Shown piece by piece: positions 5,876 through 51,223 of a DNA stretch of 64,000 bases; within the stretch, counting starts at the first letter, position 1, and every line of letters begins with the position of its first letter. Source of the DNA: an uncultured Desulfobacteraceae bacterium. GTDB lineage: Bacteria > Desulfobacterota > DSM-4660 > Desulfatiglandales > Desulfatiglandaceae. A program made the position numbers and the translations under genes. Below the pieces are notes generated by a model. The model did not search any database, had not been told where the DNA came from, and saw only the letters and a program-made list of their open reading frames with translations. The DNA is taken from contig CAZVGY010000002.1 of the NCBI GenBank assembly GCA_964627015.1, forward strand, positions 36,554 to 100,553, given 5' to 3'.

Positions 5876-6886
5876 TCAATCACTCGTGGGGATGACCCTG
5901 TATGGTATCGATATTTTTGGCATGCCCTCATCATTAGTAACTATAACCAGGTCTCCGTTTATCTGCTTATCTATATTTTTTCCTTTCCATACCAATGCCA
6001 GAACACAGCTCTTGTTTTGTTCTACGGGAATTATTCCCCAGATAATATTCTTGTTGTTGGTATTTACCTGCTCCAGCCTAAGGGGTTTGCCTGATGACTG
6101 TATGAAATGTACGGTATTGGATGCTTGACCATTATTGACCTTTTTGTGTGAATAAAAGACAAGCTCATCCGGGTAATAAGATATATTCCCTTCTATTTTG
6201 CCGAAGAGGAAAAGTTTGAGATTTGAAGCGTTTGGGACATCTGTTTCAATGGTGATAATATCCTCCACCCTTCCAAGGGGAATATTGGGGGCAACTTTTA
6301 TTTTCAGCTCGTAACCGGGACTTTCATTCTTTCCCTGGTTAATCGGTTTGTATGTGGTAGTAAAAAATTTGGAGGAGCTTTCTATCCCTTTTATTTCAAA
6401 AAATTTTCCATCATTAGAAATGATTTTGAGTTCCTGTATCCATGTTTCTCCTCTCTGGATATGGATCAGCAGATTCTCTTCGGGTATGACACTGAGGATG
6501 GTTTTCACCCTGGCGCTGAGAAGCAGTCTAAGTTCGGGCCAGACCGGATCATTTGAGATTACCATGACTCCCATGGTAGTGCTGCCTCTCAAACCTTCTG
6601 TTTTTACCTCCAGAACGACTTCACCCTCCTTCCCGGGAGGGATTACCCGGTCAAACCGGGCGACTGAGCAGCCTCAGTCTGGATAAGCCTCTTCAATTAT
6701 CAGATCCGCATTCCCATTGTTTTTCAGGATAAAAGCATGGCTGATTTTTTTACCGCGTATTACTTCACCGTAATTGTGCAGGGTGGAATCTACTGCCAGT
6801 TCGGGCACGGGGCTGGCTATCAATTTTCCCCCCATGAACATATGCATGATAAACAGGATCATTAACATAATATTTATATTTTTCAT
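5876..6886 (-). CDS. Exported DUF1573-family protein with in-frame TGA (candidate selenocysteine, U-G-C motif)
   Basis: Track ORFs 6674..6886 and 5876..6592 are in one frame, joined by a single TGA (6674..6676) with no other stop. The read-through peptide is ...NNGNADLIIEEAYPD-U-GCSVARFDRVIPPGKEGEVVLEV..., which fits the DUF1573 pattern ...SCGCT....I.PG..G.I.V. It has a signal peptide (MKNINIMLMILFIMHMF) and AGGAG 8 nt upstream of the ATG. Confidence 0.7.
6645..6661 (-). promoter_or_regulatory. Candidate bacterial SECIS hairpin for the DUF1573 UGA
   Basis: On the mRNA strand the sequence is G-CCCGG-UUUGA-CCGGG-U, starting 12 nt after the UGA. A second hairpin CCCUCC-CGGGAA-GGAGGG follows at 6621..6640. 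Confidence 0.4.
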
Positions 6887-6927
6887 TCAGTTCACTCCTG
6901 CCATGATTTCTTGGAGTTATATAAAGG

Positions 6928-8121
6928 TCATTCTGATCTGAGAGCAGTTATAGGATCCAGTTTGGATGCCTGTCTTGCGGGATAGAAACCAAAAAAGATA
7001 CCAACTGCGGAAGAGACTCCGAATCCCAGGGCAATTGCGAGGTATGATATCAGGAACTGCCATTTTGAAAAATAGGAGATAATGTATGAGGCTGACACTC
7101 CAAGTATAATTCCGAAAATGCCCCCTGCCAGAGAGAGGAGGATAGATTCGATCAGGAATTGGCTCTGAATATCTCCCCTTTTTGCCCCGAGTGCTCTTCT
7201 GATGCCGATCTCTCTGCGACGCTCGGTTACTGATACGAGCATAATATTCATTACACCTACACCGCCTACGATCAGAGAGATACTCCCGACTGATCCCAGA
7301 AGCAAAGTGTAGAGTTTCATCTGTTTTTCCATTCGCTCTATCAGTTCCTCAGCACTGTTTACGTTCATGGGGTTGTGTCCTAAATATTCTGTGAAATAGG
7401 TCACGATCTCGTCCCGGGCCGCCAGGTGATGTGCACCTTCGGTCATCCTCGCCATTATATTGCTGATTTCTCCGCCTTCAATAAACCTTTCTGCCGTAGT
7501 TATAGGGATCAGAATACCTTCATTTATACCCCAGGGGCGCATACCACCAAAAGAGGTATATTCAAGGACCCCTATAATTGTTAATATATGATTCCCGGCC
7601 TTGATCTTCTTTCCTATAAGATCCGCCTGCATGCCTGCTTCAACAAACTTGGAAGCTATTTCTGCGCCGAGGACACAGAAGTAGCTGTACCTGTCAAGGT
7701 CGCTTATAAACCGCCCCTCCTTAATTCGAATTTTATTCAGTTCCTGGAATGATTCGGTAACCCCTAAAACGGATCCGTGGTTTTCCTTTCCCTCCAGCCT
7801 TATTACCGAGTTTCCCTGGATATATGGAGCCACCATACTTATAGCAGGGCAATAATCGGGAATCTTGAGGGTGTCTTCAAGTATAATGGCCTTATCCTGG
7901 AATTTTCCTTCGGCCGGGCCGAACCCCTTCTGTATGGTTAATATGTCAGTGCCCATCTCTCTAAACTGTCTGAGAGCTTCGGCTTCAACAATTTTTCCCA
8001 CAGATACCATGGCAATAACTGATCCGATTCCTATGATAATGCCTATTAGCGCCAGCACGGTGCGCTGTTTGGCTCCGAGGAGGCTTCTGGCGGCTTCCTT
8101 CAGGCTCGTGTCAAGGATCAT
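6928..8121 (-). CDS. ABC transporter permease, FtsX/MacB family
   Basis: 397 aa with an N-terminal TM, a large periplasmic domain and a C-terminal FtsX 3-TM bundle. 4-nt overlap with the upstream ATPase gene. Confidence 0.85.
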   Translation of the reverse strand: MILDTSLKEAARSLLGAKQRTVLALIGIIIGIGSVIAMVSVGKIVEAEALRQFREMGTDILTIQKGFGPAEGKFQDKAIILEDTLKIPDYCPAISMVAPYIQGNSVIRLEGKENHGSVLGVTESFQELNKIRIKEGRFISDLDRYSYFCVLGAEIASKFVEAGMQADLIGKKIKAGNHILTIIGVLEYTSFGGMRPWGINEGILIPITTAERFIEGGEISNIMARMTEGAHHLAARDEIVTYFTEYLGHNPMNVNSAEELIERMEKQMKLYTLLLGSVGSISLIVGGVGVMNIMLVSVTERRREIGIRRALGAKRGDIQSQFLIESILLSLAGGIFGIILGVSASYIISYFSKWQFLISYLAIALGFGVSSAVGIFFGFYPARQASKLDPITALRSE

Positions 8122-8786
8122 TCTTCAAAAACCCTCCCGTCCTTCATATTAACGCGACGATTGCATTGAATCGCAATATCCGAATCATGGGTTATAATAA
8201 TAACTGTAATTCCTTCCTCCACGTTGAGCCTGATAAACAGGTCCATTATGTCCTGCCCGACGCCGGTATCAAGTGCACCGGTGGGTTCATCAGCAAGAAT
8301 GATCGCCGGTCTGGCGGCCAGAGCTCTTGCAATTGCAACCCTCTGTTGCTGGCCTCCTGACAGTTCATTTGGCCTGTGGTTAAGCCGATCCTCCATATTT
8401 ACTTTTTTTAAATATTCGAGCGAGGATTGCCTGATCTCCGACTTTTTCATGCCTCTGTATATGAGGGGTACTCCAACATTTTCAAGAGCCGTGAGCCGTG
8501 ACAATAAATTAAAGGATTGGAAGACGAATCCGATTTTCTGGTTGCGGATAACTGAGATTTCATCATCGCTGAGCTTCCCGGTTTCCTTTCCTTCTAACAC
8601 ATAAGAGCCGGATGCAGGCTTATCCAGAAGTCCTATTATGTTCATCAGTGTTGATTTACCGCAGCCGGAGGCACCCATAATCGAAACGAGTTCTCCTTCT
8701 TCCACCTCCAGAGAGATGCCTTTCAGTACCTCTACATCGATCGGCCCGATTCTGTAAGCCTTTCTGATATCAACCAGCTTTAACAT
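8118..8786 (-). CDS. ABC transporter ATP-binding protein (MacB/LolD-type)
   Basis: Walker A GASGCGKST, signature LSGGQQQRVAIARAL, Walker B ILADEPTGALD. Confidence 0.93.
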   Translation of the reverse strand: MLKLVDIRKAYRIGPIDVEVLKGISLEVEEGELVSIMGASGCGKSTLMNIIGLLDKPASGSYVLEGKETGKLSDDEISVIRNQKIGFVFQSFNLLSRLTALENVGVPLIYRGMKKSEIRQSSLEYLKKVNMEDRLNHRPNELSGGQQQRVAIARALAARPAIILADEPTGALDTGVGQDIMDLFIRLNVEEGITVIIITHDSDIAIQCNRRVNMKDGRVFEE

Positions 8787-8829
8787 TTATTTTCAACCTG
8801 TGAGTTATTACAAAAGCCTTACAGGAGAA

Positions 8830-10608
8830 CTATTTTTCTGTAATCAGTTTTTTTCCAGGCTCAAGTCCCTTAAGTACTTCTACTGAATCTAGAGTAGTTA
8901 TGCCTGGTTTCACCAACACCTCTTTGATTGTTCCATTCTCGTCTTCGACCCTGACAAAGTAATTGCCTCCCTTGATTTCAACAGCATCTATGGGAACCAT
9001 GATAGCATCGGACCGTTTATATGTCTGGATTTCCATATCTGCAGACATTCCGACCTTAATTTCTTTCCTATGTTTCGGATCAAGCCGTTCGACAACGATT
9101 GTGATGTCAAAGGTGGGTATATTCCGCTCTCTTTTAGCCTGTGAGGATATCTTGGTGATTTGGCCTTCCAGTTTCAGGCCGGGGAAGGCATCTCCTGTAA
9201 TTATAGCAGGTTGTCCTTTTTTAATTTTGGAAATATCCACTTCATCCACACTGGCCTTTACCGACAGGCCACTCAGGTCTCCGATGGAGAACATGATGGA
9301 ACCATATTCAAAGTCCATGCCTTTTTCTACTTTTTGGACACTTTTTCCCCTCACCGCTACAGTGGGAAGAATGACAATCCCTGACACAGGTGCAAGAACT
9401 TTGGCGTTTTTTATCCTGGTTTCAATACCTTGCATTCTGATCCGGGAGTTTTCGGCTTCCATCCTGGCAATATCGATATTTTCCTCTTTTCCTTTTTCGA
9501 GGACCGCCTCAAGTTCTTCTTGAGAAGCCCTGAAATCTATTTCCATGTTCCGAAGCTGCTCCATCGCTGATTTATATTCGCTGGCCGGAATAATCCCTTT
9601 CTGGAAAAGACGTTCAGTTTCCTCCACCTTACGCCTCTGGGAATCCAGTGAAAGTGTCGCTTTGGATAAAGATCTGCGGGCTTGTTTGACTTCGGTCCCG
9701 CTTTCCCAGTCTCTCAACTGTCTAAGATTCTGAAGTGCTTTTATGTGCGCGGCCTTTGCTTCGCGATATTTGATTTCTATATCCGAGGTGTCCATCTCCA
9801 GAAGCAAGGTCCCCTGTTCAACACGGTCACCATAACTGAAGTAAATTTCCTTTACTTTCCCGCCAAGTGGGCTGAGTATGTTAACAACTCTCAGGGGTTC
9901 CAGGTTGCCCGGAACGGATATGGTATGGGAAACGGCCTCGGGGGTTGCAGTGAATGTTTTTATCTGCATATTTTCCGGAATATTCAGAGAAGCTTCTCCG
10001 GATTTCGCGGGCCGCTTCAGGAGTTTTTTGTTCCAGAAAAAGAGGCCGGAACCCAAAAAAACAGATATTATCAGGATTGTGGAGAAAATACGGATAACCT
10101 GCACCTTTCGAAGGGCGGAGTGAAGCCCCTTATTAGTCTCCTCTATTTTGAGATAGGCCTCCTGGAGTTTTGCGTGTTTATTTTTAAGGTCTTCTGTCAG
10201 CCTTGCCTCTGTGTCGCGCAGTTTTTTCAACTCTGTAATATCGCTGAAAACGGCGATAACGCCTACTTTTTCGGCCTTTCCATCTTCTCTCATATCTTTG
10301 AGAAATGACGTTGTTAGAGAGAGAAAGACCTCCTTCTCACCGTTGAAAAAAGCGACAGTCCTGTTATGAGAAGTACTTGATTCATATATCGCATCCAGGA
10401 TGGCCTGGTTAAAGTCATCGTTACCTTCGTGTTCAAAAAAAATCTGAGCAAATTTTTTACCTGAAACTTTCTCCTGATCCAGGCAAAGGATAGATGATGC
10501 CGCGGAATTAAAGGTTATGATCTGACCGCTGAGGTCAATGGCCATGACTCCGTCGCTCATGTTTTCAAGGATATTCTTATAGACAATGGATCTCTGCCCC
10601 ATGTCCAT
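8830..10608 (-). CDS. Membrane-fusion (HlyD/MacA-type) periplasmic adaptor with N-terminal cytoplasmic PAS domain
   Basis: Domain order is PAS-like (ILENMSDGVMAIDLSGQIITFNSAASSILC...VFSDITELKKL), coiled coil, one TM (IFSTILIISVFLGSGLFFW), then lipoyl/hairpin/barrel adaptor regions. The likely start is ATG 10608 (GAAGGAGGA upstream), which forms a TGATG overlap with the TolC-like stop. The track start at 10644 is probably over-extended. Confidence 0.8.
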   Translation of the reverse strand: MDMGQRSIVYKNILENMSDGVMAIDLSGQIITFNSAASSILCLDQEKVSGKKFAQIFFEHEGNDDFNQAILDAIYESSTSHNRTVAFFNGEKEVFLSLTTSFLKDMREDGKAEKVGVIAVFSDITELKKLRDTEARLTEDLKNKHAKLQEAYLKIEETNKGLHSALRKVQVIRIFSTILIISVFLGSGLFFWNKKLLKRPAKSGEASLNIPENMQIKTFTATPEAVSHTISVPGNLEPLRVVNILSPLGGKVKEIYFSYGDRVEQGTLLLEMDTSDIEIKYREAKAAHIKALQNLRQLRDWESGTEVKQARRSLSKATLSLDSQRRKVEETERLFQKGIIPASEYKSAMEQLRNMEIDFRASQEELEAVLEKGKEENIDIARMEAENSRIRMQGIETRIKNAKVLAPVSGIVILPTVAVRGKSVQKVEKGMDFEYGSIMFSIGDLSGLSVKASVDEVDISKIKKGQPAIITGDAFPGLKLEGQITKISSQAKRERNIPTFDITIVVERLDPKHRKEIKVGMSADMEIQTYKRSDAIMVPIDAVEIKGGNYFVRVEDENGTIKEVLVKPGITTLDSVEVLKGLEPGKKLITEK

Positions 10609-12110
10609 CAATCCTCCTTCATTTTTTTTATATCTATTTTCCACGTATCCAAGGTGGTACCCAGCGTCCTGTCCATTGCTGCCAATTCGTTCAGGTAGCT
10701 GATGGTGGCATCAAGTTCATTGTTCCGGGCATTTAGAAGGTCATTATGAAATGTTACAAGCTGAAAATTGGATGATCGACCCGTTCTTAATTTCTCTCTT
10801 TCAAGCTCCAGTTTTCTTTCTGTAAACTCTCTCGCCCGTTGGGCGGATCCAACCTGGCTCAATTTCATTTCAACATCCCGAACAGCATCCATTACCTCTG
10901 TTTCGATACTGTCAGTCAGCTCATCCAGGGCCAGTCTGGCTTTTTTTAGGTGGTTTTCCGCTCTTATGACTCGTTCTTCACGGGTCAGGTCTCCGAAAGG
11001 TATGTTAAGGCTCACTCCCGCATTCAAATCACTCATGTCGGCGTTGCCTGTCGCCTTCCAGGAGTGCCGCCGTTCTGGGGTGTCGGTGGCGTCTACGCCG
11101 TAAGCCCCGTCCGGGGATACGTCCCAGAGGTAGTTGTTTTCGGCTGCGATGAGATTTAGTTCCGCTACTTTGAGGTTGAGAAGTGCCTGGAGGTAGTCGG
11201 GCCTTGCATTCAGGGCAACTGCCATGTACTTCACCGGGTCGGGTTTGATAGATTTTATTTTCATGGTTCCACTAGGGATGATCATTGTATTTTTATCAAT
11301 GTCAAGTATCCTCAGCAAAGAATAGCGTGCCGCCTCCATGGCGTTTCTGGCCCGGGTGAGGCCGAATTCCTTATCTGCCAAATCCGCCTGAGCCTGAACA
11401 ATTTCCACCTGTGCCATTCTCCCTGCCCCTATCAGGGCCCTGTTTACTTCAAGCAGGTCTTTAGCCCTTTCTAGGGATTTTGTGCTGATTTCAAGCTGTT
11501 TTCCAGCTTGAAGAAAGTTGCGGTAGGCATTGATGGCGGAGGTTACCGTGTCCATGATTGTAGATTTCAAAAAGAGGATATTGATCTGTTTATTTATCCT
11601 TGCCATTTCGAGCGGTATGGTTTTTACGGTTATACCCTCACCCTTCAATAATGGCTGATTAAATGCGAGATTCCAAGAGGAACTGTAGGTATCATCTGGA
11701 GAATTACCGTCGATTTCGCGAGCAGTAGAGTTATCCCACACAAAAGAAAGCTCCGCACCGGTTTGGAGTTTTTGAGTGACCGTGGCGAAGATTTCGGCCC
11801 GGTTAGCATATGACCTGTTTTGACCGTCGCCTACGGATACATGTTTTACTGAAGGGTTTATGGCGAGATCCGGGTGAAATTCATCTTCATCAACTCTCAG
11901 ATCAAACTTCTGGACAACGCCGTCCAGGCAAGCGCTTTTGATGCTTCTATTATGCCTCAAGGCAAGGAAGACACAGTCTGTCAGGGTCATTTCCTTAGCC
12001 TGTCCTGTCTTGGATTTGTTTTTTTCATAAGAGTGCGCAGGTACAAAAATCCAAAAGGGAACCGAAAAAATTAAAAGCAGGCAGGAAATTTTCTTGAGAG
12101 AGAAACGCAT
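10608..12110 (-). CDS. TolC-family outer membrane efflux protein
   Basis: Two-repeat OEP architecture. ATG 12110 gives the signal peptide MRFSLKKISCLLLIFSVPFWIFVPAHS. The track ORF extends to TTG 12179, and the true start is uncertain. Confidence 0.8.
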   Translation of the reverse strand: MRFSLKKISCLLLIFSVPFWIFVPAHSYEKNKSKTGQAKEMTLTDCVFLALRHNRSIKSACLDGVVQKFDLRVDEDEFHPDLAINPSVKHVSVGDGQNRSYANRAEIFATVTQKLQTGAELSFVWDNSTAREIDGNSPDDTYSSSWNLAFNQPLLKGEGITVKTIPLEMARINKQINILFLKSTIMDTVTSAINAYRNFLQAGKQLEISTKSLERAKDLLEVNRALIGAGRMAQVEIVQAQADLADKEFGLTRARNAMEAARYSLLRILDIDKNTMIIPSGTMKIKSIKPDPVKYMAVALNARPDYLQALLNLKVAELNLIAAENNYLWDVSPDGAYGVDATDTPERRHSWKATGNADMSDLNAGVSLNIPFGDLTREERVIRAENHLKKARLALDELTDSIETEVMDAVRDVEMKLSQVGSAQRAREFTERKLELEREKLRTGRSSNFQLVTFHNDLLNARNNELDATISYLNELAAMDRTLGTTLDTWKIDIKKMKED

Positions 12111-12544
12111 AATCGCAATGAAAAATTTTAAATCCGTTAGAAGTTGGTTTATGTTTTTCCCGCTCAGTGGGTTGGCCAATTTATTCAGCTGTTTTTGAGG
12201 TATACCCTGCGGCCGGAATTAAAACACAATGGGTTTTTGTGAAAAAACATAGGTTACGGGGGAGGAACTGTCAATGACGAAATACATTGATGATCCAGGC
12301 ACAGTAGGTGCGTATCAGGGGCCTTTAAATTAAAATTCATTGCAATGTGATAAAGTTTAAGTACATTTAAGCTGTGTAACCGGCATTTGAATTCCGGCCT
12401 TTCCAAGATTCTCTTCCTTTTTCCTGGCACTTGTTTTATAGTAAAAAACGAGGGTCTAAATTCAAAGATATTTAGTAATGAGTACATGTTGAGTCAATGA
12501 TTCCAGAAATGTTGTCTGTCTGGATGGCAGGAAAGGAGGGCAGT

Positions 12545-42210: not shown

Positions 42211-44631
42211 TTATTTTTTGTTTTTCAGTATTCGAGTGGTTTCAGCAATCTCTTCTGCTGAAACGGAACGCCGGAGTTTTTCTAATCGCAACATGACATC
42301 TGCAAATCTGACACCCTCTGCCGCGCTTATCCATTCGAGTTGGAGACGCTCAGCTCGAATCCCAAGTTTAATCATTTTTTTATGAATTTTTGCGACTCTT
42401 TTTTCTGTCCAGTGGTTTGCGTCTATATAATGACAGTCTCCTATGTGGCAGCCGCTGACCAATATAATCGGTGCTCCCTTAAGAAACCCGTCCCATATGA
42501 ACTTTTCATCCACCCGTCCGGAACACATGGTTCTGATAAGTCGGATGTTAGGAGGATACTGGAGCCTGGAGACACCTGCGTAATCGGCACCGGCGTATGA
42601 ACACCAGTTACAGGCAAAGGCGAGAATTTTTTGCTCTGGTTCTTCCTCTAGTAAGGCATTAACCTGGTTCATTATCTGGGCGTCTGTGAAATGGTTCATT
42701 ATTATGGCGTCAAAGGGGCACTCTGCAGCGCATGTGCCGCACCCGGCACATGCCGCTGTATTAACCACGGCCGGAAGTTTCTTTTTGACATCCACTGTTA
42801 TTGCGTTATATGGACATACTTCCGCACATTTGCCGCAGAATCTGCAATTTTCCGGTATAACCTGGGATGTAATAGGTTCAGAGGTGATCTCTCCACTGTG
42901 CATAAGACGGATAGCACGGGCAGCAGCAGCAGAAGCCTGGGTGACGCTCTCTTTTATATCTTTTGGAGATTCAGCACATCCAGCATAAAAAATGCCACGG
43001 GTTGCAGCATCTACAGGTTGGAGTTTGGGGTGGGCTTCCAGAAAGAAACCATCTGAAGAAAGCTGTAATCCCAGCATCTCCTGTAGCTTTTGTGTGCCTG
43101 GTGCGGGTTTGATCCCCAGGGCCAGTACAAGCATATCCAGTCTGTGTATTTCAAGTTTGCCTGTGGCGGTATTTTCGACTGCAACACGTAAGCTGCCGTC
43201 AGTTTCCTGCTCAACCGTACCAGGCAGGCCCCTGATATAATGCGCCCCAACCCTCCGACTTCTTTTATAAAGGTCTTCAAATCCCTTGCCGAACGCCCTG
43301 ATGTCGATGTAAAAGACCTTCACATCCATGTGAGGATAATGCTCCTTGAGCATCAATGTGCCTTTTATCGTGTTCATGCAGCATATATTGGAGCAGTAAT
43401 CACTACCTTTTCTTGCAGACCGTGATCCAACGCACTGTACGAAGCCAATTGAGCTTGGCCTTTTTCTATCAGTGGGACGGATCAATTCTCCATTGGTTGG
43501 CCCTCCGGCATTAATAAGGCGTTCAAATTCAAGGCTGGTCACGACATTTTCAAAACGCGTGTATCCGTATTCATCGAGTTCAGTAGGATCATAGACCTCA
43601 AGGCCTGTAGCTACGATAATGGACCCGACTTTTTCAGTGATTTCCTCATCGGACATATGAAAATTTATGCAGCCCTTGTCACATGCGTCTATACACTTAG
43701 CGCATACAGCCGGATTATGACCCAGGCATTCATTTATATTTATCACATAAGCAGAAGGGACGGCCTGCGGAAATGGCGTAAAAACAGCTCTACGAGATGA
43801 GAGACCGAGGTTGAATTCATCTGGACGGACAACAGGGCATACTTTGGCGCACTCACCGCATGCGGTGCACTCCTTTTCATCAATATAGCGGGCTTTTTTG
43901 AGTATTCCTACCTCAAAGTTACCAACGTATCCTTTTACACTTTCTATTTCGCTCAAGGTGTAAAGTTTGATCCGGGGATGTCGACCGACATCCGTCATCT
44001 TCGGACCGAGTATTCAGATGGAACAGTCCATGGTAGGAAATGTTTTGTCGAGCTGGGCCATTGTTCCGCCTATCGAAGGCCTCTTCTCTACCAACACTAC
44101 ATCAAAACCATTATCTGCCAGATCCAGAGCAGCCTGTATGCCTGCAATTCCACCGCCTATAACTAAGGCTCTCTTGGTTAGGGGAAGCTTTTCCTCCTGT
44201 AAGGGCTCAAGCAGCTTTACCCGGGATATGGCCATTTTTACCAGATCTGTGGCTTTTTTTGTTGCGGCGCTTGCTTCATTCATGTGCACCCAGCTGCATT
44301 GCTCACGAAGATTGGCCATCTCAAGGAGATAAGGGTTCAGACCTGCTGACTGAAGCATCTGACGGAAGGTAGGTTCATGAAGCCTTGGGGAACAGGAAGC
44401 AACCACCACACGGTCCAGGGAGTATTCTTCTATATCATCTTTTATTTGTTGCTGTCCAGGTTCGGAACATGCATAGACTATATCCTTTGATATAATAACA
44501 TCCTCAATTTGCGCAGCAAATTCAGCTACTTCGTTGCAGTTGACGCTTTGGGCAATGTTGAGGCCGCAATGACATACGTAGACTCCAATTCTGGGGCGCT
44601 CTGGCGGGTAATCAGAATTGTTTGCGAGCAC
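42211..44631 (-). CDS. hdrA: Heterodisulfide reductase subunit A fused to MvhD-like domain; selenocysteine-containing (TGA 44014..44016)
   Basis: Track ORFs 42211..43998 and 44014..44787 share one frame. Read-through gives [30 protein letters not shown], which puts the TGA at the Cys/Sec position known for HdrA. Other features are FAD motif VIGGGIAGIQAALDLA, several 4Fe-4S motifs, and the C-terminal MvhD signature FACNWCSYAGADYAG. The likely start is GTG 44631 (GGAGGG upstream), giving MLANNSDYPPERPRIGVYVCHCG. Confidence 0.88.
43977..43992 (-). promoter_or_regulatory. SECIS hairpin for the hdrA UGA
   Basis: On the mRNA strand the sequence is GAUGUC-GGUC-GACAUC, a 6-bp stem with a GGUC apical loop as in the E. 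coli fdhF SECIS. It starts 21 nt after the UGA. Confidence 0.6.
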
Positions 44632-44675
44632 TTTTCCCTCCGTGTTTCTGTTGATCGCTACTACGTGTTTAAAAT

Positions 44676-46256
44676 CTATTCCCAGCGTATGGTTTTCGTT
44701 ACAACACTGGTGAGATCCATCATATCCATCCTTAGTTCTTCTCCAAAAAACGGATCCTCCATTGCACAGCGCAGATGGATCTGGCATTTTGGACAGGCTG
44801 TTACAAGGAGGTCACTCCCGGTATCTTTGGCCTGTCGAATGCGTTTCATTTGAAGAGCTTTGCTAAAAGAATCACAACCCGTCCACGCACAATTACCACA
44901 ACAGATGGCACTGGCAGCGCTATCCTGCATTTCAGAAAAATCCTGGAGGTTTAACCGGGAAATCAGTTTTCTTGGCAGGTTGGGACGATTTTCAAGCCTG
45001 CTTAATCTGCAGGGATCCTGGAAGGTCAATCTTCGATTCATTTTTTTAAATCCTACAGCCCCTTTATCAATCTCTCTCTCAAGTACATCGAAGATGTGTG
45101 TAACCTTGAAATTAACCTGAACGCCATTTTCCGGGTAGTCGTGGGCAAATGTTCTGTAGCATTCGGGACAGGCAGTTATAAGTTCGCGTATTCCACGTTT
45201 ATGAATCGCCTCTACGTTTAAATTTGCCAGCTTAAGGTAATTTTCCTTATCCCCTGACCAAAGAAGATCATGTCCACAGCAACGTTCGTCTTCAAGTAGT
45301 GCAGGATGGATGTCGAAAAAGTTCAGAAGCCTAAGCCCGTCTACTAATATGCTCCTGGTATGGATCCCCAGGTGCTTTCTAAAAAAAATGTCAAAATATG
45401 GCGCACAGCCGCCGAAAAAAAGGGTCTCACTTTGATTATCGGTTTGTATGTCTTCTGGTAGCCATTCCCAGTGCCTGACTTTCAGGTCGGGAGGGGTCAT
45501 GGTCCGCATCAGCGAATGGAAAAACCCACCGTGAGCCTCAAAGCCTTCTGAACCTGTAATTTTAAGGATATGACGCATGTCTTTTATAAATTCTGGAAAA
45601 TTGACGGCTGAAGGGCACCTGTCATAACAGAGCCCGCATGTGAGACAAGACCAGATGTCTTCACGTACAGAAGAAGAATCCATATTTTTTGTAACTATTG
45701 CATTTGCTATAGCCCTTGGGGAAAAAGGCTTGCCAGCCAGAGTCAAAGGGCATGCTGATGAACATTTTCCGCAGTCCTGGCATGCGTAGACGTCATACTT
45801 GGCTACCACAGAATCAATAAGGCCTTGTATCTCGGTTTCTGATAACCTCTTAGGTTGGGGAGCTATGGGGCTCTTACCTATAGGCTCTATCTCCTCTATA
45901 AATTCTTCAAGAAATTTGAGAAGGCCTTTTGAGTCTTCCGGCATAAAAGTTGCCAGTCGGAGCCGGTTTTTGCCGAGACCGAGAAGGTCAAGTATGCCCC
46001 TTGTGTCTTCAACATTTTCTTCGGCTGTAGATGTCCCCGCACCGTAACGGCAGGTACCCGCTTCGCACCCCACCAGTGCTACTCCATCGGCGCCCATTTC
46101 AAAAGGTTTAAATAAGAGGGCCTTACTTATTCTTCCTGTACAGGGGATTCGGACCATTTTTATTTCAGGTGGGATCCTGGATAAACTGTCCTGAAGCTCC
46201 TGATAGGCAGCATGAGGTCCCCAGTTACAGAGAAAAAGGATAATATTTATGTCCAC
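44676..46256 (-). CDS. MvhD-like + HdrC-like (2x4Fe-4S) + HdrB-like (CCG domains) fusion protein
   Basis: N-terminal LFLCNWGPHAAY...RIPCTGR...VALVGC, ferredoxin motifs CQDCGKCSSACP and CLTCGLCYDRCP, and two CCG-type Cys-rich regions (ERCCGHD..., ICCGNCAWTGC). GTG start. Confidence 0.8.
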   Translation of the reverse strand: MDINIILFLCNWGPHAAYQELQDSLSRIPPEIKMVRIPCTGRISKALLFKPFEMGADGVALVGCEAGTCRYGAGTSTAEENVEDTRGILDLLGLGKNRLRLATFMPEDSKGLLKFLEEFIEEIEPIGKSPIAPQPKRLSETEIQGLIDSVVAKYDVYACQDCGKCSSACPLTLAGKPFSPRAIANAIVTKNMDSSSVREDIWSCLTCGLCYDRCPSAVNFPEFIKDMRHILKITGSEGFEAHGGFFHSLMRTMTPPDLKVRHWEWLPEDIQTDNQSETLFFGGCAPYFDIFFRKHLGIHTRSILVDGLRLLNFFDIHPALLEDERCCGHDLLWSGDKENYLKLANLNVEAIHKRGIRELITACPECYRTFAHDYPENGVQVNFKVTHIFDVLEREIDKGAVGFKKMNRRLTFQDPCRLSRLENRPNLPRKLISRLNLQDFSEMQDSAASAICCGNCAWTGCDSFSKALQMKRIRQAKDTGSDLLVTACPKCQIHLRCAMEDPFFGEELRMDMMDLTSVVTKTIRWE

Positions 46257-46343: not shown

Positions 46344-49300
46344 TCAACCGCCGAGTACTTCTTCAAGAATACGCTCCAGATATGCCTGGTCACGATAGGG
46401 ACTGTCAGCCGCGTTTGACGGGCACACTGAAATACAATTGCCGCAACCCTTACAAAGGGCCTCATCCACTACAGCGTACCATCCTCCTACTGAATTTTTG
46501 CGTAACGTGATAGCTTGATAGTGGCAGACTTGTATACAGCGTCCGCAGCCCCTGCATCGATTCTCGTCTATAACAACCGTATATCCTTTGCTCTGCCTAG
46601 GCCCTCGCGGCATTATCGCAGCCGCAAGTACCGCTGCAGCGGCCCCTTTTTTTCTTTCGGAAACCTTGATTCCAGAGGGATTAGCTACAAAAAGTCCGGA
46701 GATCGGGGTCGCCCCGGGATATAAAAAAGGAATGCCGGCTACTCCATGTTTTTGCATGCTGGAAGCGATGAAGCTGGTAGGCAGGCCCTCCTGAGATATA
46801 TAGGGGATAAGCCGCCTACTTTTTTCACCCAGTATGACACTCCCTACCTGCAGGGCTTGAGAAAAGCCGTTTGATTCGACAAATACCTGGAAATCTCCCA
46901 GGGTTCCACTTATTCCCCTGACACTGGTATCTTCGAAATAATAGATATTTGAATGAGACAAATCCCCGGGTGTCTTTTTGCCTTTAGAGCCGAATTTTAA
47001 AACTTCGATTCCGGCCTGAGCCAGAGTTAGTGCGCTTACTGATGCTGCTTCGGAATCTCCTATTACAGCTGTGGTAAAGTTATATGTCCTCGCCGGCGCG
47101 GGCAGCGCCCTCAATCTTCTGGCCCTTCGGATTGATCTTTCTATTAACCCTTCAAAGCGGGACACGACACAGGCGGGGTCATGCCTCAGGTACTGAAGCA
47201 CTTCCCCTCTGAGATTGCAGGTCTCAACCATAGAGCGGCTTACACCTGTCCCAGTAAAAAGTGCGGTTTTCAGTCGGCTTCTTTGATCTGTGCATGCACT
47301 GCAAACAAAGTCAAGGGGGCAGCACACGCAGGATGCGAGGACAACACGTGTAATACCCTTTTCACGTACGGTCCTGACAATGCCAGCGGAGCCTTCGGGG
47401 ATGCATGCCGAAGGAATAGTTTCGGCATGGACAATATCTCCATTCTCCAGCAGTTGTTCAACGTAATTATCCAGCTCTTTGAGCCACCCCATTGAGTCAT
47501 TGCAGCGGCATATAAAGACCCCAATACGAATTTCAGGCGATAACTCAGGGTCAGGCGGTGAAAATGAGACTCCTCGGCCTTTGGGAAGTTGTGACGTCCC
47601 CCCTAGCAAAATCATCGACTTCGCAGCTGCTGAAAAACCACGAATGACCATTCCATAGACATCAGGTTTTGCCACTTTGGGCCCATATGCCCTGATCACG
47701 TCCTCACCCTTGATCTGGGGGGCTGCATCAGGGTCGGCTATTATTACCACTCCTGCGTGTTCTTTGCTTTCCAGCGGCTGTTCAGAATGGTTTATCGCTC
47801 CTATTGGCTGACAAGCTTCAACGCATAAGTTACACTCGGAGCAGATGCCGCATTGGAGGCATCGTTCAGCCTCCAGCAGGACTTGAGTCTGGCTGAGCCC
47901 CAACGCGACCTCAGAAAAATTGTCTATTCTAGAACTGGGCTGTCTTTCGGGCATTGTTGGTCGGGCAAGGGAAGGAATGTCGCCGGGAATCGGCGGATAA
48001 TCCTTGTCTTCAGGCCTCGAAGGTAGTGTTGAGAATATATCTTCTCCACAAATATATTCATGGATAGAAGCTGCAGCGGCTCTTCCCGTTGCCATGGCTT
48101 CGACTACGGACGAAGGCCCGGAAACAGCATCCCCGGCCGCGTAAACACCAGAGATTCCTGTATAGAATTCTTTATTTACTTTGATAAAGCCCCGGGGAGT
48201 GAGGCTTATTCTGTCTCTATGTCCCTCTTTTTTTGAAAATCCTGCTTGGCCTATAGCCACTATAGCCCGTTCAAACTTTAGTTCAAAGGATTCACTCCCG
48301 GGGATTAACACAGGCCACGGTATTCCGTTGCTATCGGGTTCCCCCGGTTTGGTGGGCTTACAGCGCAGGTGGTCCAGCTTCCCGTTTTGTCCTGAAAAGG
48401 ATATTACTTGTGTCCGGTCTTTGACGGTAATCCCTTCCTCTCTAGCCCCTCTGATTTCCTCTTTGTCCGCCGGAATAAGGTCTTCGGGAAACCAGGACAA
48501 AATCGTAACGCTGGCACCCAGACGCTTGAGAACTCGAGCCAGGTCGAATGCCGCGTTGCCGTCGCCGATGACAGCTACGTTTTGTTTTATTTTCAAAGGT
48601 TTTTCGTGGTAAAGGCTGGTAAGGAAACTCAGACAGCCCTCTACACCCTCTAAATCTTCTCCCTGGATGCCCATCTTACGGTCTGTCCAAATACCGACAG
48701 TTAGCAGGACAGCATCAAATTCCTTTTTCAGTCTTTCAAGGTCCTCCATTATATTTATTTTACGAGAGGTTATGAATTGGACGCCTATCACTCTAATATA
48801 ATCGAGTTCATGGTCAAGGATTTCCCTGGGGAGACGGTGCGGGCCTATGCCGTAACGGAGCAACCCTCCAGTCATGGCTTCTTTCTCAAAAACCGTTACC
48901 ATATATCCAAGACGAGCCAGGTCTCCTGCTGCGGCGAGCCCGGCGGGCCCTGAACCTATTACAGCAATTTTTTCCGTCTTTTGAGGTGTTTTTACCTCTT
49001 TGGAATTGTGAGGATGGCTGAGCTCAAAGTCTGCCAGAAAACGCTTGATATCTTTAATAGCAATGGCTTCATCAAGCTCTCCCCGTCTGCATACCTCTTC
49101 ACAAGGATGTGTGCATACTCTGCCGCAGATACCGGGCAAAATGTTGTCACGGCGGACTGTTTCAAGAGCCTCATGAAAACGACCAGCTCGAGTCAGAGCC
49201 ACATAAGCTTGCACATTAACTCCGAGGGGACAATTAGACTGGCATGGGGGTGTACGCCTTTTATCTATAACAGGTCGGCCTGGCAGGCTCCTTCTATCAT

Positions 49301-49703
49301 AAAACAGGATAGGTTTGCCTCCATCCGGTGTCAGGACCGGGCAGACTTCTAGGCAGCGGCCACAAAGGATACATCGATTCAGATCTATAAATGTAGGCAT
49401 CCCTTGCACCCTAGCTCTGAAACCCTGGGGCGTATGCCTTATAGATGTGACATCAGCGGGCATTATGCAACGGATAAGAGGGTTGTGAAATATTCTTAGT
49501 AGTCCAGACTTATGCGCGAAGTTAAAGTGGATACCAGAGGGTAGTTTCCATTGTTCTCTGGAAAGTTTTTGATTCAGGTCAGGATCCCGATCAACCAGTG
49601 TGACAGGGATCCCCAGTTCACCCAGCTTGTTGGTTGCAGCAATTCCAGCGGGAGTGGCACCGATTACGATCACTTTGTGCAGGCGGTCTTTAGAGCGTTT
49701 CAT
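46344..49703 (-). CDS. Giant HdrL-like flavo-iron-sulfur protein (GltD-like NAD(P)H module + HdrA-like modules + ferredoxin domains)
   Basis: 1119 aa with dinucleotide motifs VIGATPAG, VIGSGPAGLAAAGDLA and VIGDGNAAFDLA. The GltD-like region is CPLGVNVQAY...ICGRVCTHPCEEVC. The HdrA N-domain-like region is RIGVFICRCNDSMGW...VVLASCVCC. The terminal region is CRGCGRCIQVC / CKGCGNCISVCP. The ATG lies 2 nt after the korG stop. Confidence 0.8.
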   Translation of the reverse strand: MKRSKDRLHKVIVIGATPAGIAATNKLGELGIPVTLVDRDPDLNQKLSREQWKLPSGIHFNFAHKSGLLRIFHNPLIRCIMPADVTSIRHTPQGFRARVQGMPTFIDLNRCILCGRCLEVCPVLTPDGGKPILFYDRRSLPGRPVIDKRRTPPCQSNCPLGVNVQAYVALTRAGRFHEALETVRRDNILPGICGRVCTHPCEEVCRRGELDEAIAIKDIKRFLADFELSHPHNSKEVKTPQKTEKIAVIGSGPAGLAAAGDLARLGYMVTVFEKEAMTGGLLRYGIGPHRLPREILDHELDYIRVIGVQFITSRKINIMEDLERLKKEFDAVLLTVGIWTDRKMGIQGEDLEGVEGCLSFLTSLYHEKPLKIKQNVAVIGDGNAAFDLARVLKRLGASVTILSWFPEDLIPADKEEIRGAREEGITVKDRTQVISFSGQNGKLDHLRCKPTKPGEPDSNGIPWPVLIPGSESFELKFERAIVAIGQAGFSKKEGHRDRISLTPRGFIKVNKEFYTGISGVYAAGDAVSGPSSVVEAMATGRAAAASIHEYICGEDIFSTLPSRPEDKDYPPIPGDIPSLARPTMPERQPSSRIDNFSEVALGLSQTQVLLEAERCLQCGICSECNLCVEACQPIGAINHSEQPLESKEHAGVVIIADPDAAPQIKGEDVIRAYGPKVAKPDVYGMVIRGFSAAAKSMILLGGTSQLPKGRGVSFSPPDPELSPEIRIGVFICRCNDSMGWLKELDNYVEQLLENGDIVHAETIPSACIPEGSAGIVRTVREKGITRVVLASCVCCPLDFVCSACTDQRSRLKTALFTGTGVSRSMVETCNLRGEVLQYLRHDPACVVSRFEGLIERSIRRARRLRALPAPARTYNFTTAVIGDSEAASVSALTLAQAGIEVLKFGSKGKKTPGDLSHSNIYYFEDTSVRGISGTLGDFQVFVESNGFSQALQVGSVILGEKSRRLIPYISQEGLPTSFIASSMQKHGVAGIPFLYPGATPISGLFVANPSGIKVSERKKGAAAAVLAAAIMPRGPRQSKGYTVVIDENRCRGCGRCIQVCHYQAITLRKNSVGGWYAVVDEALCKGCGNCISVCPSNAADSPYRDQAYLERILEEVLGG

Positions 49704-49705
49704 TC

Positions 49706-50302
49706 TCAGGCTCCTGTCATACCTTTGGCTTTCTTGTTCCGCCCTTTTAGTACCGCCAGTCCATAGTCGTAGCCCTTGTCAAATGCCGTTATATTCATTT
49801 TTTCGGTGCCTTTGGGTACCGATGCGGCCACGGAATCACGTAATGCTTTAACCGATACAGCTCCGGTGGCCGAGGTGAAAAAGCCTAGCATAATGATATT
49901 GGCCATCATCGTCCTTCCCAACTCCTCAGCCATCCGCGTCGAGGGGATGGAGTAAAAATCAGTGTCTATTCCTGCAGGTTTGACCAGATCCTGATCGATC
50001 AGTAGCACACCATCTCTTTTTAACTGACCTATGAACTTATCAAAACCTGCCTGGGACATGCATACAAGTATATCTGGGTATCTAACATTGGGATAATGAA
50101 TCTGCCTGTCGGAGATTATTACTTGTGCACTGCAAGCTCCACCCCGTGCCTCAGGACCGTAGGCTTGGACAAGGGTGCTTTGCCTGTGGTCGCCCAGGAC
50201 GACAGCTTTTCCCAGGATCCGCCCTGCCAGCACTATTCCCTGCCCCCCGAACCCGGTTAAAATAATTTCTTGCCTTACAGTTTCTTCTTTTTGCTCAGTC
50301 AT
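49706..50302 (-). CDS. korG: 2-oxoacid:ferredoxin oxidoreductase gamma subunit
   Basis: ILTGFGGQGIVLAGRILG opening typical of POR/KOR gamma subunits. The kor (2-oxoglutarate) assignment rests on the delta-alpha-beta-gamma gene order, as in OorDABC, and substrate is unproven. Confidence 0.8.
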   Translation of the reverse strand: MTEQKEETVRQEIILTGFGGQGIVLAGRILGKAVVLGDHRQSTLVQAYGPEARGGACSAQVIISDRQIHYPNVRYPDILVCMSQAGFDKFIGQLKRDGVLLIDQDLVKPAGIDTDFYSIPSTRMAEELGRTMMANIIMLGFFTSATGAVSVKALRDSVAASVPKGTEKMNITAFDKGYDYGLAVLKGRNKKAKGMTGA

Positions 50303-50347
50303 GTATCCCCTGCAAAAATATACGTTATGGGGTTTTGAGGTTTTAAG

Positions 50348-51223
50348 CTAGGCCTTAGCAGCCTTGTATTCGTTTAGCTGTTCTTCGTGCCGGTAAATTT
50401 TATCATACGTGTCTATCCATGTAGGCCGGTCAATGTCGACAAATTTTCCGAGAATTATCGCCCTTTCGAAGTCGATATCGAGCTCCAGTGGATGGGCTTC
50501 GTTTTTTATTATGGTTTTTTCCTGGTAGATTTTAAGAGTGTCGATCGGTTTTTCTCTATTACGGCGCCCATAGTTAACAGGACAAGGAGCCAGGACTTCA
50601 ACGAAGGAAAATCCCCTCTTCACTATAGCCTCTTCAATAGATTCGGTGAGATCACGAGCGTGTAAAATGGTCCACCTTGCTACATAGGTGGCACCTGATG
50701 CGTATGCCAGCAGAGGGAGGTTAAAAGGGGATTCAGGATTTCCTGAAGGAGTGGTAGTCGTCCTGGCATTATAGGGAGTAGTGGCAGCAACTTGTCCGCC
50801 AGTCATGCCATAGTTAAAGTTATTGACACAAACGATTGTAAGGTCTACGTTCCTGCGTGCTGCATGTATGAAGTGGTTTCCACCAATAGCAAAGAGATCT
50901 CCATCCCCACTAAAAACGATTACATTCAATTCTGGATTTGCAAGCTTCATCCCTGTCGCGAATGGGATGGCCCTTCCGTGCGTAGTATGATAGGAATCCA
51001 GGTTTACGTATCCTGCACCCCGTCCGGTACATCCGATCCCTGAAACCATTACGGTTTTTTTCAAATCAATTCCGCTTTCTTTCATGGCGATCAGACATGA
51101 AGAAAATGCTGTGCCGATGCCACAACCCGGACACCATATGTGCGGGATACGATCAGTTCGCAGGAGACCGTCAAGAGGGTGGATCTGCTGTTTGTCGGTT
51201 TGCTTCATGACTTCCCTGATCAT
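50348..51223 (-). CDS. korB: 2-oxoacid:ferredoxin oxidoreductase beta subunit (TPP-binding)
   Basis: WCPGCG, the GIGC motif, the GDGD...N TPP motif (SGDGDLFAIGGNH), and NNFNYGMTGGQ. Confidence 0.9.
   Translation of the reverse strand: MIREVMKQTDKQQIHPLDGLLRTDRIPHIWCPGCGIGTAFSSCLIAMKESGIDLKKTVMVSGIGCTGRGAGYVNLDSYHTTHGRAIPFATGMKLANPELNVIVFSGDGDLFAIGGNHFIHAARRNVDLTIVCVNNFNYGMTGGQVAATTPYNARTTTTPSGNPESPFNLPLLAYASGATYVARWTILHARDLTESIEEAIVKRGFSFVEVLAPCPVNYGRRNREKPIDTLKIYQEKTIIKNEAHPLELDIDFERAIILGKFVDIDRPTWIDTYDKIYRHEEQLNEYKAAKA

Follow-up and report, generated by a model that had tools for sequence, protein, structure and literature searches.

The locus considered here raises the question of whether two minus-strand open reading frames, interrupted by a TGA at 6674..6676, represent two small genes, the remains of one gene, or a single gene in which the UGA is read as selenocysteine (Sec). 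The last of these had been proposed from the letters of the window (the whole 64-kb stretch of DNA that was analysed), with Sec replacing the first Cys of the C-G-C motif of an exported DUF1573 protein. Translation of the frame 6886..5876 on the minus strand reveals a sole internal stop ('...LIIEEAYPD*GCSVARFDRVIPPGKEGEV...'), and the mechanically delimited ORFs, 6674..6886 (70 aa) and 5876..6592 (238 aa), both lie in this one frame, exactly as the original prediction had described. The parts of the gene are the following.

5876..6886, minus strand: probable OS_HP2/DUF1573 selenoprotein coding sequence, 336 sense codons including the Sec codon, colinear with homologues
6895..6899, minus strand: AGGAG ribosome-binding site, 8 nt 5' of the ATG at 6886, read directly from the sequence
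6674..6676, minus strand: in-frame UGA, codon 71, very probably Sec and the U of U-G-C, by alignment to the first Cys of CGC
6668..6670, minus strand: TGC codon, codon 73, the putative resolving/partner Cys of U-G-C; C73 is invariant in the protein alignment
5876-5878, minus strand: terminal TGA stop of the coding sequence, by translation

The motif is encoded by the triplets TGA-GGC-TGC, which lie opposite the CGC of two full-length Cys homologues, P0004 ('KPSCGCTIARFDRVIPPG') and P0005 ('SPDCGCTVARFDRVIPPG'). In both, the first Cys of C-G-C stands against the TGA, and this alignment bears out the predicted position of the recoded residue. Moreover, the read-through product is colinear along its full length with these 338-aa homologues, and columns 7-8 (T, G) of the DNA alignment are invariant. 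With Cys in place of the TGA, residues 31-114 of the read-through protein match positions 2-86 of the 98-position PF07610 (DUF1573) profile; the score of 60.6 bits (E=1.6e-16) exceeds the gathering score of 26.1 bits and confirms the proposed domain. Its best NCBIfam match by far is NF041425, the model dedicated to the 'OS_HP2 family (seleno)protein' (93.7 bits, E=6.9e-27, model positions 3-98 of 98).

The suggestion that DUF1573 might be an undescribed selenoprotein family did not survive this comparison, since OS_HP2, i.e., pfam07610 with a UxC motif, has been on record since 2007 (Zhang and Gladyshev, 2007, PMC1976440; Zhang and Gladyshev, 2008, PMC2398784). It was first found in two symbionts of Olavius algarvensis, delta1 and delta4 (PMC1976440, PMC2398784), and reviews of 2022 and 2026 list a "DUF1573 domain-containing protein, UGC" (PMC9312934, PMC13188914). 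The OS_HP2 family as a whole is founded on comparative genomics. The window protein falls short of the curated whole-protein cut-off of NF041425 (93.7 vs 100 bits; PGAP naming rule), and this shortfall would block automatic naming of the gene. We ascribe it to the threshold of one model and not to any missing feature, because TGA-bearing relatives with the same motif lie on either side of the cut-off (89.9-112.6 bits). Within the clade that the window protein forms with L002, L004 and L007-L010, the two members tested (L002 and L009) score 91.7-97.3 bits, and TGA-bearing relatives outside this clade reach 105-113 bits. The protein collection searched has the window locus only in split form, as products of 70 aa and 232 aa; therefore, the gene seems to be one more member of the known OS_HP2 family, apparently unannotated.

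The codon at the UGA column was tabulated across 80 related loci of species-representative genomes (the best 80) and four metagenome contigs. The outcome sides with the original prediction: TGA occupies the column in 62 distinct loci and a Cys codon in 18 (TGC in 15, TGT in 3), and neither TAA nor TAG occurs there in any of the 80 loci or the 4 contigs. Sec forms are hence more frequent than Cys forms within the 'ARFDRVIPPGGEGK' branch of DUF1573 (62 vs 18 among the best 80 genome loci, a ratio that the search pattern may bias). The loci come from Thermodesulfobacteriota, Acidobacteriota, Myxococcota, Krumholzibacteriota and unclassified MAGs, and their cultured carriers include Desulfacinum hydrothermale DSM 13146 (L029) and Desulfoferrobacter suflitae DRH4 (L020). 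Independent contigs at 60%, 41% and ~38% identity have TGA at the identical column, and each was split by gene callers in the same way.

These observations bear on the possibility that translation truly ends at the TGA, so that a nonsense mutation has turned a Cys-type DUF1573 gene into a pseudogene or the locus comprises two separate small genes. Such a reading accords with the 70-aa and 232-aa products held in the protein collection and with the use of TGA as a normal stop in this genome, yet it does not explain why one column holds TGA, and never another stop, in so many distinct loci of several phyla, nor why in-frame protein conservation runs on past the TGA, on both sides of it. Furthermore, the 70-aa product would consist of no more than a signal peptide and one half of a beta-sandwich, the called downstream ORFs begin at arbitrary internal GTG or ATG codons and lack a signal peptide, and stable hairpins (see below) are specific to the TGA-bearing genes. 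Given this, we consider a true stop very improbable.

An alternative genetic code (TGA as Trp or Gly) was ruled out, because TGA terminates 10 of the 19 family-supported genes of the window and is the commonest true stop among them. A second recoded gene lies in the same window: the hdrA frame at 44787..42211 (minus strand) contains one TGA (44014-44016, 'TMDCSI*ILGPK') at the classical CxxU site, and its read-through product reaches 1200.5 bits on the HdrA2 model NF040770 (cut-off 1100), so that the earlier statement that hdrA is recoded at its established Sec position holds. None of selA, selB, selC and selD lies within the 64-kb window, and ARAGORN found no tRNA genes in it, tRNA-Sec included.

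It is also conceivable that the UGA is decoded by a non-Sec route (near-cognate Trp or Cys), or that it is a sequencing or assembly error for TGC or TGT. tRNA-Trp and tRNA-Cys do read UGA at a low level in bacteria, and Cys forms of the OS_HP2 family exist. However, two independent assemblies, that of the window and Logan contig L001, both have the TGA, and its occurrence in 61 further loci rules out a sequencing error. The gene is also carried by Logan run SRR15988952. Near-cognate decoding is at odds with the combination of Sec/Cys pairing and hairpins restricted to TGA genes, which is the standard signature of a Sec gene, and with the TGA at a classical Sec site in hdrA of the same organism. 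We thus find near-cognate decoding or an error scarcely credible.

If the UGA is a Sec codon, as we prefer to read it, a recoding signal would be expected directly downstream, and two hairpins are found there.

6642..6664, minus strand: hairpin 1, the likeliest SECIS, with the core stem GCCCGGU/ACCGGGU at 6645-6661 and the loop UUG
6664/6642 and 6663/6643, minus strand: outer pairs of hairpin 1, G.U and U-A respectively, from the MFE structure
6624..6641, minus strand: hairpin 2, CCCUCC-CGGGAA-GGAGGG, over the I-P-P-G-x-E-G codons, from the MFE structure

The hairpin predicted earlier, CCCGG-UUUGA-CCGGG, is present at 6646-6660, 13 nt past the TGA or 12 nt with the flanking G.U pair included. 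Hairpin 1 has 7 bp and a 3-nt loop (-10.6 to -11.4 kcal/mol, ViennaRNA), and its apical loop starts 18-19 nt past the UGA; hairpin 2 has 6 bp and a 6-nt loop (-10.0 kcal/mol), which starts at 38 nt. Of the 58 Sec genes that were aligned, most have the hairpins. Relative to Cys genes, for which the comparison draws on only 11 in-register and phylogenetically clustered sequences, the hairpins are more stable in TGA genes, both for hairpin 1 (mean energy -10.0 vs -4.2 kcal/mol, p=1e-5) and for hairpin 2 (-10.5 vs -7.2 kcal/mol, p=8e-5), at a GC content of 0.63 in TGA genes and 0.62 in Cys genes. The inner pair 18-30 of hairpin 1 is formed in 88% of Sec genes vs 27% of Cys genes, and the inner pair 19-29 in 71% vs 0%. 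Hairpin 1 also carries compensatory changes, with both-sided changes at 6/9 pairs; 78.5% of cells are paired in its register vs <=50.5% in slid registers, and pairing is kept despite R->E and R->S replacements (e.g., in L044). The expectation of a conserved downstream fold in TGA-containing orthologues was thereby substantiated. Hairpin 2 showed no covariation in the aligned genes, several of its columns being fixed by codons, and the fold z-score of the window sequence is only -1.79. High conservation of the peptide 3' of the UGA (RFDRVIPPGGEGK) accounts for part of the RNA conservation, and hairpin 2 may either belong to the recoding signal as its second element or owe its presence mostly to this peptide.

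The published bSECIS model sets an apical loop of 3-9 nt, an upper stem of 4-16 bp, an MFE <= -7.5 kcal/mol, a UGA-to-loop spacing of 16-37 nt and a G in the first two loop positions, and a subset of real bSECIS elements break it (PMC13188914). Hairpin 1, situated within the coding sequence just 3' of the UGA, fits this model in its stem (7 bp), loop (3-5 nt), MFE (-10.6 kcal/mol) and spacing (18-19 nt), but its loop (UUG or UUUGA) lacks a G at either of the first two positions. Hairpin 2 fits in loop size, stem and MFE, and its loop CGGGAA has the required G, but this loop lies at 38 nt, 1 nt over the 37-nt limit; its G43 and G44 do not vary, but they belong to a Gly codon that fixes them. 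Rfam gave no match over the whole window at the gathering threshold, and at permissive E-values nothing meaningful, and no bacterial SECIS family, over 6560-6720. It is conceivable that the OS_HP2 family uses a recoding signal of two hairpins that the published bSECIS model does not cover.

Collectively, the Sec/Cys pairing at the column, the TGA-specific hairpins, the use of TGA as a normal stop and the recoded hdrA make the selenoprotein reading well supported, and the UGA of the window is, in our view, very probably a Sec codon, located at the first Cys of C-G-C as had been proposed. It is likewise highly probable that 6886..5876 (minus strand) forms one gene, whose product is an exported selenoprotein belonging to the known OS_HP2/DUF1573 family. 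The comparative evidence suggests that, when the ribosome reaches the UGA at 6674-6676, SelB with Sec-tRNA(Sec) would be recruited by the stem-loop directly 3' of it, for which hairpin 1 (6642-6664) is the best candidate and to which hairpin 2 (6624-6641) may contribute. Insertion of Sec instead of termination would then yield a 336-residue precursor, which the signal-like N-terminus would take across the cytoplasmic membrane. The precursor comprises the following segments.

6815..6886, minus strand: signal-peptide-like segment, MKN + hydrophobic INIMLMILFIMHMFMGG + KLIA|SP, from Kyte-Doolittle hydrophobicity
6545..6796, minus strand: DUF1573 Ig-like beta-sandwich with U-G-C, residues 31-114, from PF07610 and PF22544
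From DUF1573 down to 5879, minus strand: two further predicted beta-sandwich domains, from the AF2 model of P0005

Kyte-Doolittle means at the N-terminus reach up to 2.8 across residues 3-10, the signal-like segment has no Cys and therefore no lipobox, and homologues have comparable N-termini with AxA-like sites. As to the signal peptide and export claimed previously, the signal-like segment is indeed seen, and its hydrophobicity suggests that the window protein may be exported. The AF2 model of the Cys homologue P0005 (mean pLDDT 86.8) consists of three tandem all-beta domains and places CGC in the turn that joins strands 70-77 and 81-86. By analogy, the mature window protein would be built of three tandem Ig-like beta-sandwich domains, the first of which, DUF1573, would present U-G-C in a tight turn between two strands. 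A sequence search of the PDB returned only one marginal match (2qsv, E=0.039), and Foldseek comparison of the P0005 model with the PDB returned only generic tandem Ig/ASH-domain proteins (HYDIN/CFAP-like proteins, cadherins, titin) and no functional lead. Most likely, the selenol and the adjacent thiol would form a redox-active selenylsulfide/selenol-thiol couple that acts on an extracytoplasmic substrate, this U-G-C couple being a Sec version of the C-x-C centre.

The main alternative to a redox couple is that the U-G-C pair binds a metal or metalloid (Cu(I), Hg(II), Zn or a chalcogen oxyanion), perhaps passing it to or from the adjacent MacB-type exporter. The selenoprotein gene ends a co-oriented series of TolC-like, HlyD, ABC and MacB genes (6928..12179, minus strand), which were assigned by Pfam.

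10608-12179, minus strand: outer-membrane efflux protein
8830-10644, minus strand: PAS + HlyD membrane-fusion protein
8118-8786, minus strand: ABC ATPase
6928-8121, minus strand: MacB/FtsX permease, ending 41 nt ahead of the selenoprotein start

C-x-C motifs bind metals in several protein classes, the Ig-like scaffold is not a classical oxidoreductase fold, and MerP/MerT-like proteins, cation ATPases and CobW-like selenoproteins stand in the same published tables as OS_HP2; together with the adjoining cluster, these points lend a metal site some plausibility. However, tblastn with six neighbouring proteins of the window against all 86 loci found homologues of these neighbours, MacB, HlyD and the outer-membrane efflux protein included, only in the identical contig L001, apart from ABC ATPase matches in L029 and L059, several kb off; a conserved exporter linkage was thus ruled out. 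The ORFs flanking TGA loci form clade-specific contexts only. Rex and RNase H occur in 11-13 loci, and L009/L010 carry an aminotransferase and a rhodanese; the adjacency of the redox sensor Rex (13 loci) or of rhodanese in other clades points to redox or sulfur chemistry and away from a metal site. Moreover, the invariant alignment columns hold no further conserved His, Cys or Met ligands, and the describing authors placed UxC among redox motifs (Zhang and Gladyshev; PMC1976440, PMC2398784). Hence, we regard metal or metalloid binding as possible, but rather unlikely, and continue to favour a selenol-thiol redox couple.

No conserved gene neighbourhood hinting at a substrate emerged across the loci compared, a promoter and terminator scan around the selenoprotein gene gave background level only, and a literature search on DUF1573 function yielded passing mentions only. 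It is an improbable idea that OS_HP2 was recruited here as the fifth, co-transcribed gene of the TolC-like/PAS-HlyD/ABC/MacB cluster, to serve as a periplasmic selenol partner that captures or redox-processes the substrate of the pump; if true, this role would offer a first lead on the function of a family called 'hypothetical' since 2007.

The existence of the OS_HP2 family is not new, and our findings do not overturn its current understanding. Their main value lies in annotation quality: a genuine selenoprotein gene, as we read it, is stored as fragments of 70 aa and 232 aa, and its clade sits a few bits below the NCBIfam cut-off that triggers automatic Sec annotation. An exported Ig-fold protein with U-G-C would also be a reasonable target for extracytoplasmic selenium biochemistry.

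Compared with the described OS_HP2 family, the window gene shows no difference in kind. The two have in common PF07610, U-G-C, coexisting Cys homologues, a stem-loop 3' of the UGA and sulfate-reducing deltaproteobacteria as hosts; the window gene differs in that its clade lies just under the NF041425 cut-off and in the MacB-type exporter cluster upstream, which is found in no other locus. Cys-type DUF1573 proteins of Bacteroidota, Planctomycetota and others share the Ig-like beta-sandwich, the C-G-C turn and the N-terminal signal sequence, but have Cys instead of Sec, and the 18 Cys-type relatives compared (from Acidobacteriota, Krumholzibacteriota and related lineages) lack a stable hairpin 1. 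DsbA-like and DsbG-like proteins (UxxC) are among the listed bacterial selenoproteins (Zhang and Gladyshev; PMC1976440, PMC2398784). They resemble the putatively exported window protein in being extracytoplasmic and in pairing Sec with a nearby Cys, but combine a thioredoxin fold with UxxC, whereas the window protein would combine an Ig-like fold with UxC.

The minus-strand frame at 6886..5876 (the window's member of the DUF1573 selenoprotein family OS_HP2) translates as a single continuous frame of 336 sense codons with one internal stop, a TGA at 6674-6676 (...NGNADLIIEEAYPD*GCSVARFDRVIPPGKEGEVVLEV...), and both the coordinates and the translation put forward in the original prediction, one frame broken only by this TGA, were correct. 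The mechanical ORF list holds two halves that share the frame, and a ribosome-binding-like AGGAG precedes the first:

6674..6886, minus strand, N-terminal half ORF (70 aa)
5876..6592, minus strand, C-terminal half ORF (238 aa)
8 nt before the ATG at 6886, minus strand, AGGAG

A version translated with Cys for the TGA has a Pfam DUF1573 domain (PF07610) at residues 31-114, scoring 60.6 bits (E=1.6e-16; gathering score 26.1).

Only seven relatives turned up among the 5.8 billion proteins searched. Two, P0004 and P0005, are full-length Cys homologues of 338 aa (with ...KPSCGCTIARFDRVIPPG... and ...SPDCGCTVARFDRVIPPG..., respectively), and three of the seven start abruptly ('MARFDRVIPPG', 'MARHDRVIPPG', 'MAHFDRVIPPG'), the pattern expected if a gene caller restarts right after an in-frame stop. 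When the contigs of these three were translated through, every one carried TGA-GGC-TGC at the same position, with a signal peptide and half a DUF1573 domain encoded in frame ahead of it. In the protein alignment with homologues, the window TGA falls on the first Cys of C-G-C, as had been predicted; C71, G72 and C73 do not vary in this alignment, nor does the D-R-V-I-P-P-G that comes next. We then tabulated Cys versus TGA across orthologues, a check suggested at the outset, by scanning species-representative genomes with two peptide patterns, one of which excluded the Cys and is therefore blind to Sec versus Cys; among the best 80 genome loci, the codon at this column is TGA in 62 distinct cases and a Cys codon in 18 (15 TGC, 3 TGT), and never TAA or TAG. 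The TGA carriers belong to Thermodesulfobacteriota (Desulfobacteraceae, Syntrophobacteraceae, Syntrophales), Acidobacteriota, Myxococcota (Polyangia, Nannocystaceae), Krumholzibacteriota and unclassified MAGs, and include two cultured strains, Desulfacinum hydrothermale DSM 13146 and Desulfoferrobacter suflitae DRH4; the window TGA is present too in an independent Logan assembly. A nonsense mutation or a sequencing error cannot account for this distribution over loci. A reassigned genetic code is excluded, because genuine stops in the window are TGA more often than any other codon, in 10 of the 19 genes with family support.

In Acidobacteria and Krumholzibacteriota MAGs, OS_HP2 paralogues occur in tandem at a spacing of about 1.1 kb; one copy has Cys and the other Sec at this column, giving natural Sec/Cys pairs inside one locus:

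Locus L032, TGC at 6211 and TGA at 7403
Locus L077, TGC at 1073 and TGA at 2188
Locus L081, TGC at 4075 and TGA at 5191

Folding of the window RNA 3' of the UGA predicts two hairpins:

6645-6661 (outer pairs to 6642-6664), minus strand, hairpin 1, GCCCGGU-UUG-ACCGGGU, -10.6 to -11.4 kcal/mol
6624-6641, minus strand, hairpin 2, CCCUCC-CGGGAA-GGAGGG, -10.0 kcal/mol

The CCCGG-UUUGA-CCGGG hairpin recognized earlier was correctly described, its CCCGG arm beginning 13 nt past the TGA, or 12 nt counting the flanking G.U pair. The single-sequence fold of the window is unimpressive (z-score -1.79). Across 58 in-register TGA genes, a two-helix model has 78.5% of cells paired versus at most 50.5% in any slid register, and hairpin 1 shows double-sided changes in six of its nine pairs, some of these compensations coming with amino-acid replacement (GCC-GAG...TCG-GTC, A-E...S-V, in locus L044 versus GCC-CGG...CGG-GTA, A-R...R-V, in the window). 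No covariation was found in hairpin 2 among the aligned TGA genes; the peptide encoded at the hairpins is itself conserved, and hairpin 2 especially is partly forced by the I-P-P-G-x-E-G codons. Hairpin 1 averages -10.0 kcal/mol in TGA genes versus -4.2 in Cys genes (Mann-Whitney p=1e-5) and hairpin 2 -10.5 versus -7.2 kcal/mol (p=8e-5), at equal GC (0.63 in Sec, 0.62 in Cys genes), the Cys control set comprising only 11 in-register genes and the sequences being phylogenetically non-independent. Of the inner pairs, 18-30 is formed in 88% of Sec genes versus 27% of Cys genes, and 19-29 in 71% versus 0%. We conclude that there is a Sec-specific RNA structure 3' of the UGA.

The bSECIS model calls for a G within the first two loop positions and a loop at most 37 nt from the UGA, although some genuine elements break it (PMC13188914). 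Hairpin 1 conforms in its stem length, its loop size, its MFE and its 18-19 nt spacing, yet has no G in the first two loop positions; hairpin 2 has the G, but its loop begins 38 nt from the UGA. Of the two, hairpin 1 is the stronger candidate for the SECIS, and either may be the one that binds SelB. By established Sec biology, SelB with Sec-tRNA(Sec) would bind the hairpin and insert Sec at the UGA. Comparison among the homologues shows the UGA to be a sense codon paired with Cys and followed by Sec-specific structure; this column pairing and the Sec-specific hairpins support the proposed selenoprotein with U-G-C at the DUF1573 motif, and we consider decoding of the UGA as Sec highly probable.

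None of selA, selB, selC or selD lies within the 64-kb window, so we infer the Sec machinery of the organism. The hdrA frame 44787..42211 (minus strand) contains one TGA, at 44014-44016 in 'TFPTMDCSI*ILGPKM'. It occupies the CxxU site, the Sec site listed for HdrA selenoproteins (PMC2398784), and the product of read-through reaches 1200.5 bits against NF040770 HdrA2 (cut-off 1100), in agreement with the earlier view that hdrA is recoded at its established Sec position. This HdrA2-MvhD-type hdrA adds a second selenoprotein gene to the window; gene callers would split it into 257 aa and 595 aa. Its mechanical ORF start at 44787 gives an overlap of ~110 nt with the preceding gene (44676-44787), and since the HdrA2 model aligns only from residue 66, the true start is probably further downstream. 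The genes 5' of hdrA, which together look like a flavin-based electron-bifurcation cluster, are:

44676-46256, minus strand, MvhD-like and HdrC/HdrB-like (CCG) fusion protein
46344-49703, minus strand, 1119-aa GltD-like NAD(P)-binding protein with HdrA-like C-terminus, partial match to NF045663 'diclust_near_Sec'
49706-52407, 2-oxoacid:ferredoxin oxidoreductase alpha/beta/gamma set

A run of five co-oriented genes in the window ends with the DUF1573 selenoprotein gene; the other four are:

10608-12179, minus strand, outer-membrane efflux protein
8830-10644, minus strand, PAS-HlyD membrane-fusion protein
8118-8786, minus strand, ABC ATPase
6928-8121, minus strand, MacB/FtsX permease, ending 41 nt 5' of the selenoprotein start

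The PAS-HlyD protein of this MacB-like exporter has an N-terminal PAS domain (residues ~22-140), an unusual fusion of a sensor domain to a periplasmic adaptor. No MacB, HlyD or OEP homologues occur in the flanks of any other locus, so the exporter linkage is not conserved; a functional link of the selenoprotein to the adjacent exporter appears unlikely. The closest full-flank orthologues, L009 and L010 (36-37% identity), lack the window's exporter genes; a class I/II aminotransferase lies upstream in both, and a rhodanese-domain protein directly downstream in L009 (flank genes at L009 6971-7468, L009 4560-5714 and L010 3401-4588). An ORF at L010 7121-7618 matches the L009 rhodanese gene in size and position. 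In 13 loci of one TGA-bearing sub-clade (including L006, L036, L040, L049, L053 and L055), a Rex-type redox-sensing repressor (Put_DNA-bind_N + CoA_binding) lies ~1 kb upstream, with RNase H just downstream in 11; a PAS/GAF histidine kinase is found further upstream in this sub-clade. No universal neighbour partner emerges for OS_HP2.

The N-terminus (MKN, a 17-residue hydrophobic run, KLIA|SP) resembles a type-I signal peptide, and the equivalent segments of homologues carry AxA-like sites, suggesting that the protein is exported. The AlphaFold2 model of P0005 comprises three tandem all-beta domains (mean pLDDT 86.8), with C-G-C in a short turn between strands 70-77 and 81-86. Its Foldseek matches are generic tandem Ig/ASH-like arrays only (HYDIN/CFAP proteins, cadherins, titin) and the best PDB sequence match is marginal; hence, the fold supplies a scaffold and no chemistry. 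UxC is classed as a redox motif by the authors who described the family (PMC2398784), and by analogy the U-G-C turn would most likely form a selenylsulfide/selenol-thiol redox couple. Two of the genomic contexts, Rex and rhodanese, hint at redox or sulfur chemistry; binding of a metal or metalloid by the U-G-C pair is a live, if less likely, alternative.

The suggestion that DUF1573 might be an undescribed selenoprotein family finds no support. Zhang and Gladyshev described the OS_HP2 selenoprotein family as new, from the delta1 and delta4 symbionts of Olavius algarvensis (PMC1976440), and their GOS paper has the entry 'OS_HP2, pfam07610, UxC', for which it gives 2 Sec sequences and 354 Cys homologues (PMC2398784); since the literature and NCBI annotation models already cover family, motif and Sec/Cys pairing, the implied novelty is unsupported. 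The best NCBIfam match of the window protein is NF041425 'OS_HP2 family (seleno)protein' (93.7 bits, E=6.9e-27, 96/98 positions), just below the curated cut-off of 100 bits, a plausible reason for the gene being present in the protein collection as two fragments only. The nine TGA-bearing sequences scored (the window, L002, L006, L009, L013, L020, L029, L044 and L067) range from 89.9 to 112.6 bits, a scatter that puts the window clade inside a single continuous family, as a branch of slight divergence. The window gene belongs to OS_HP2, and the current NF041425 would leave a good share of genuine Sec forms, the window's included, unnamed and probably split.
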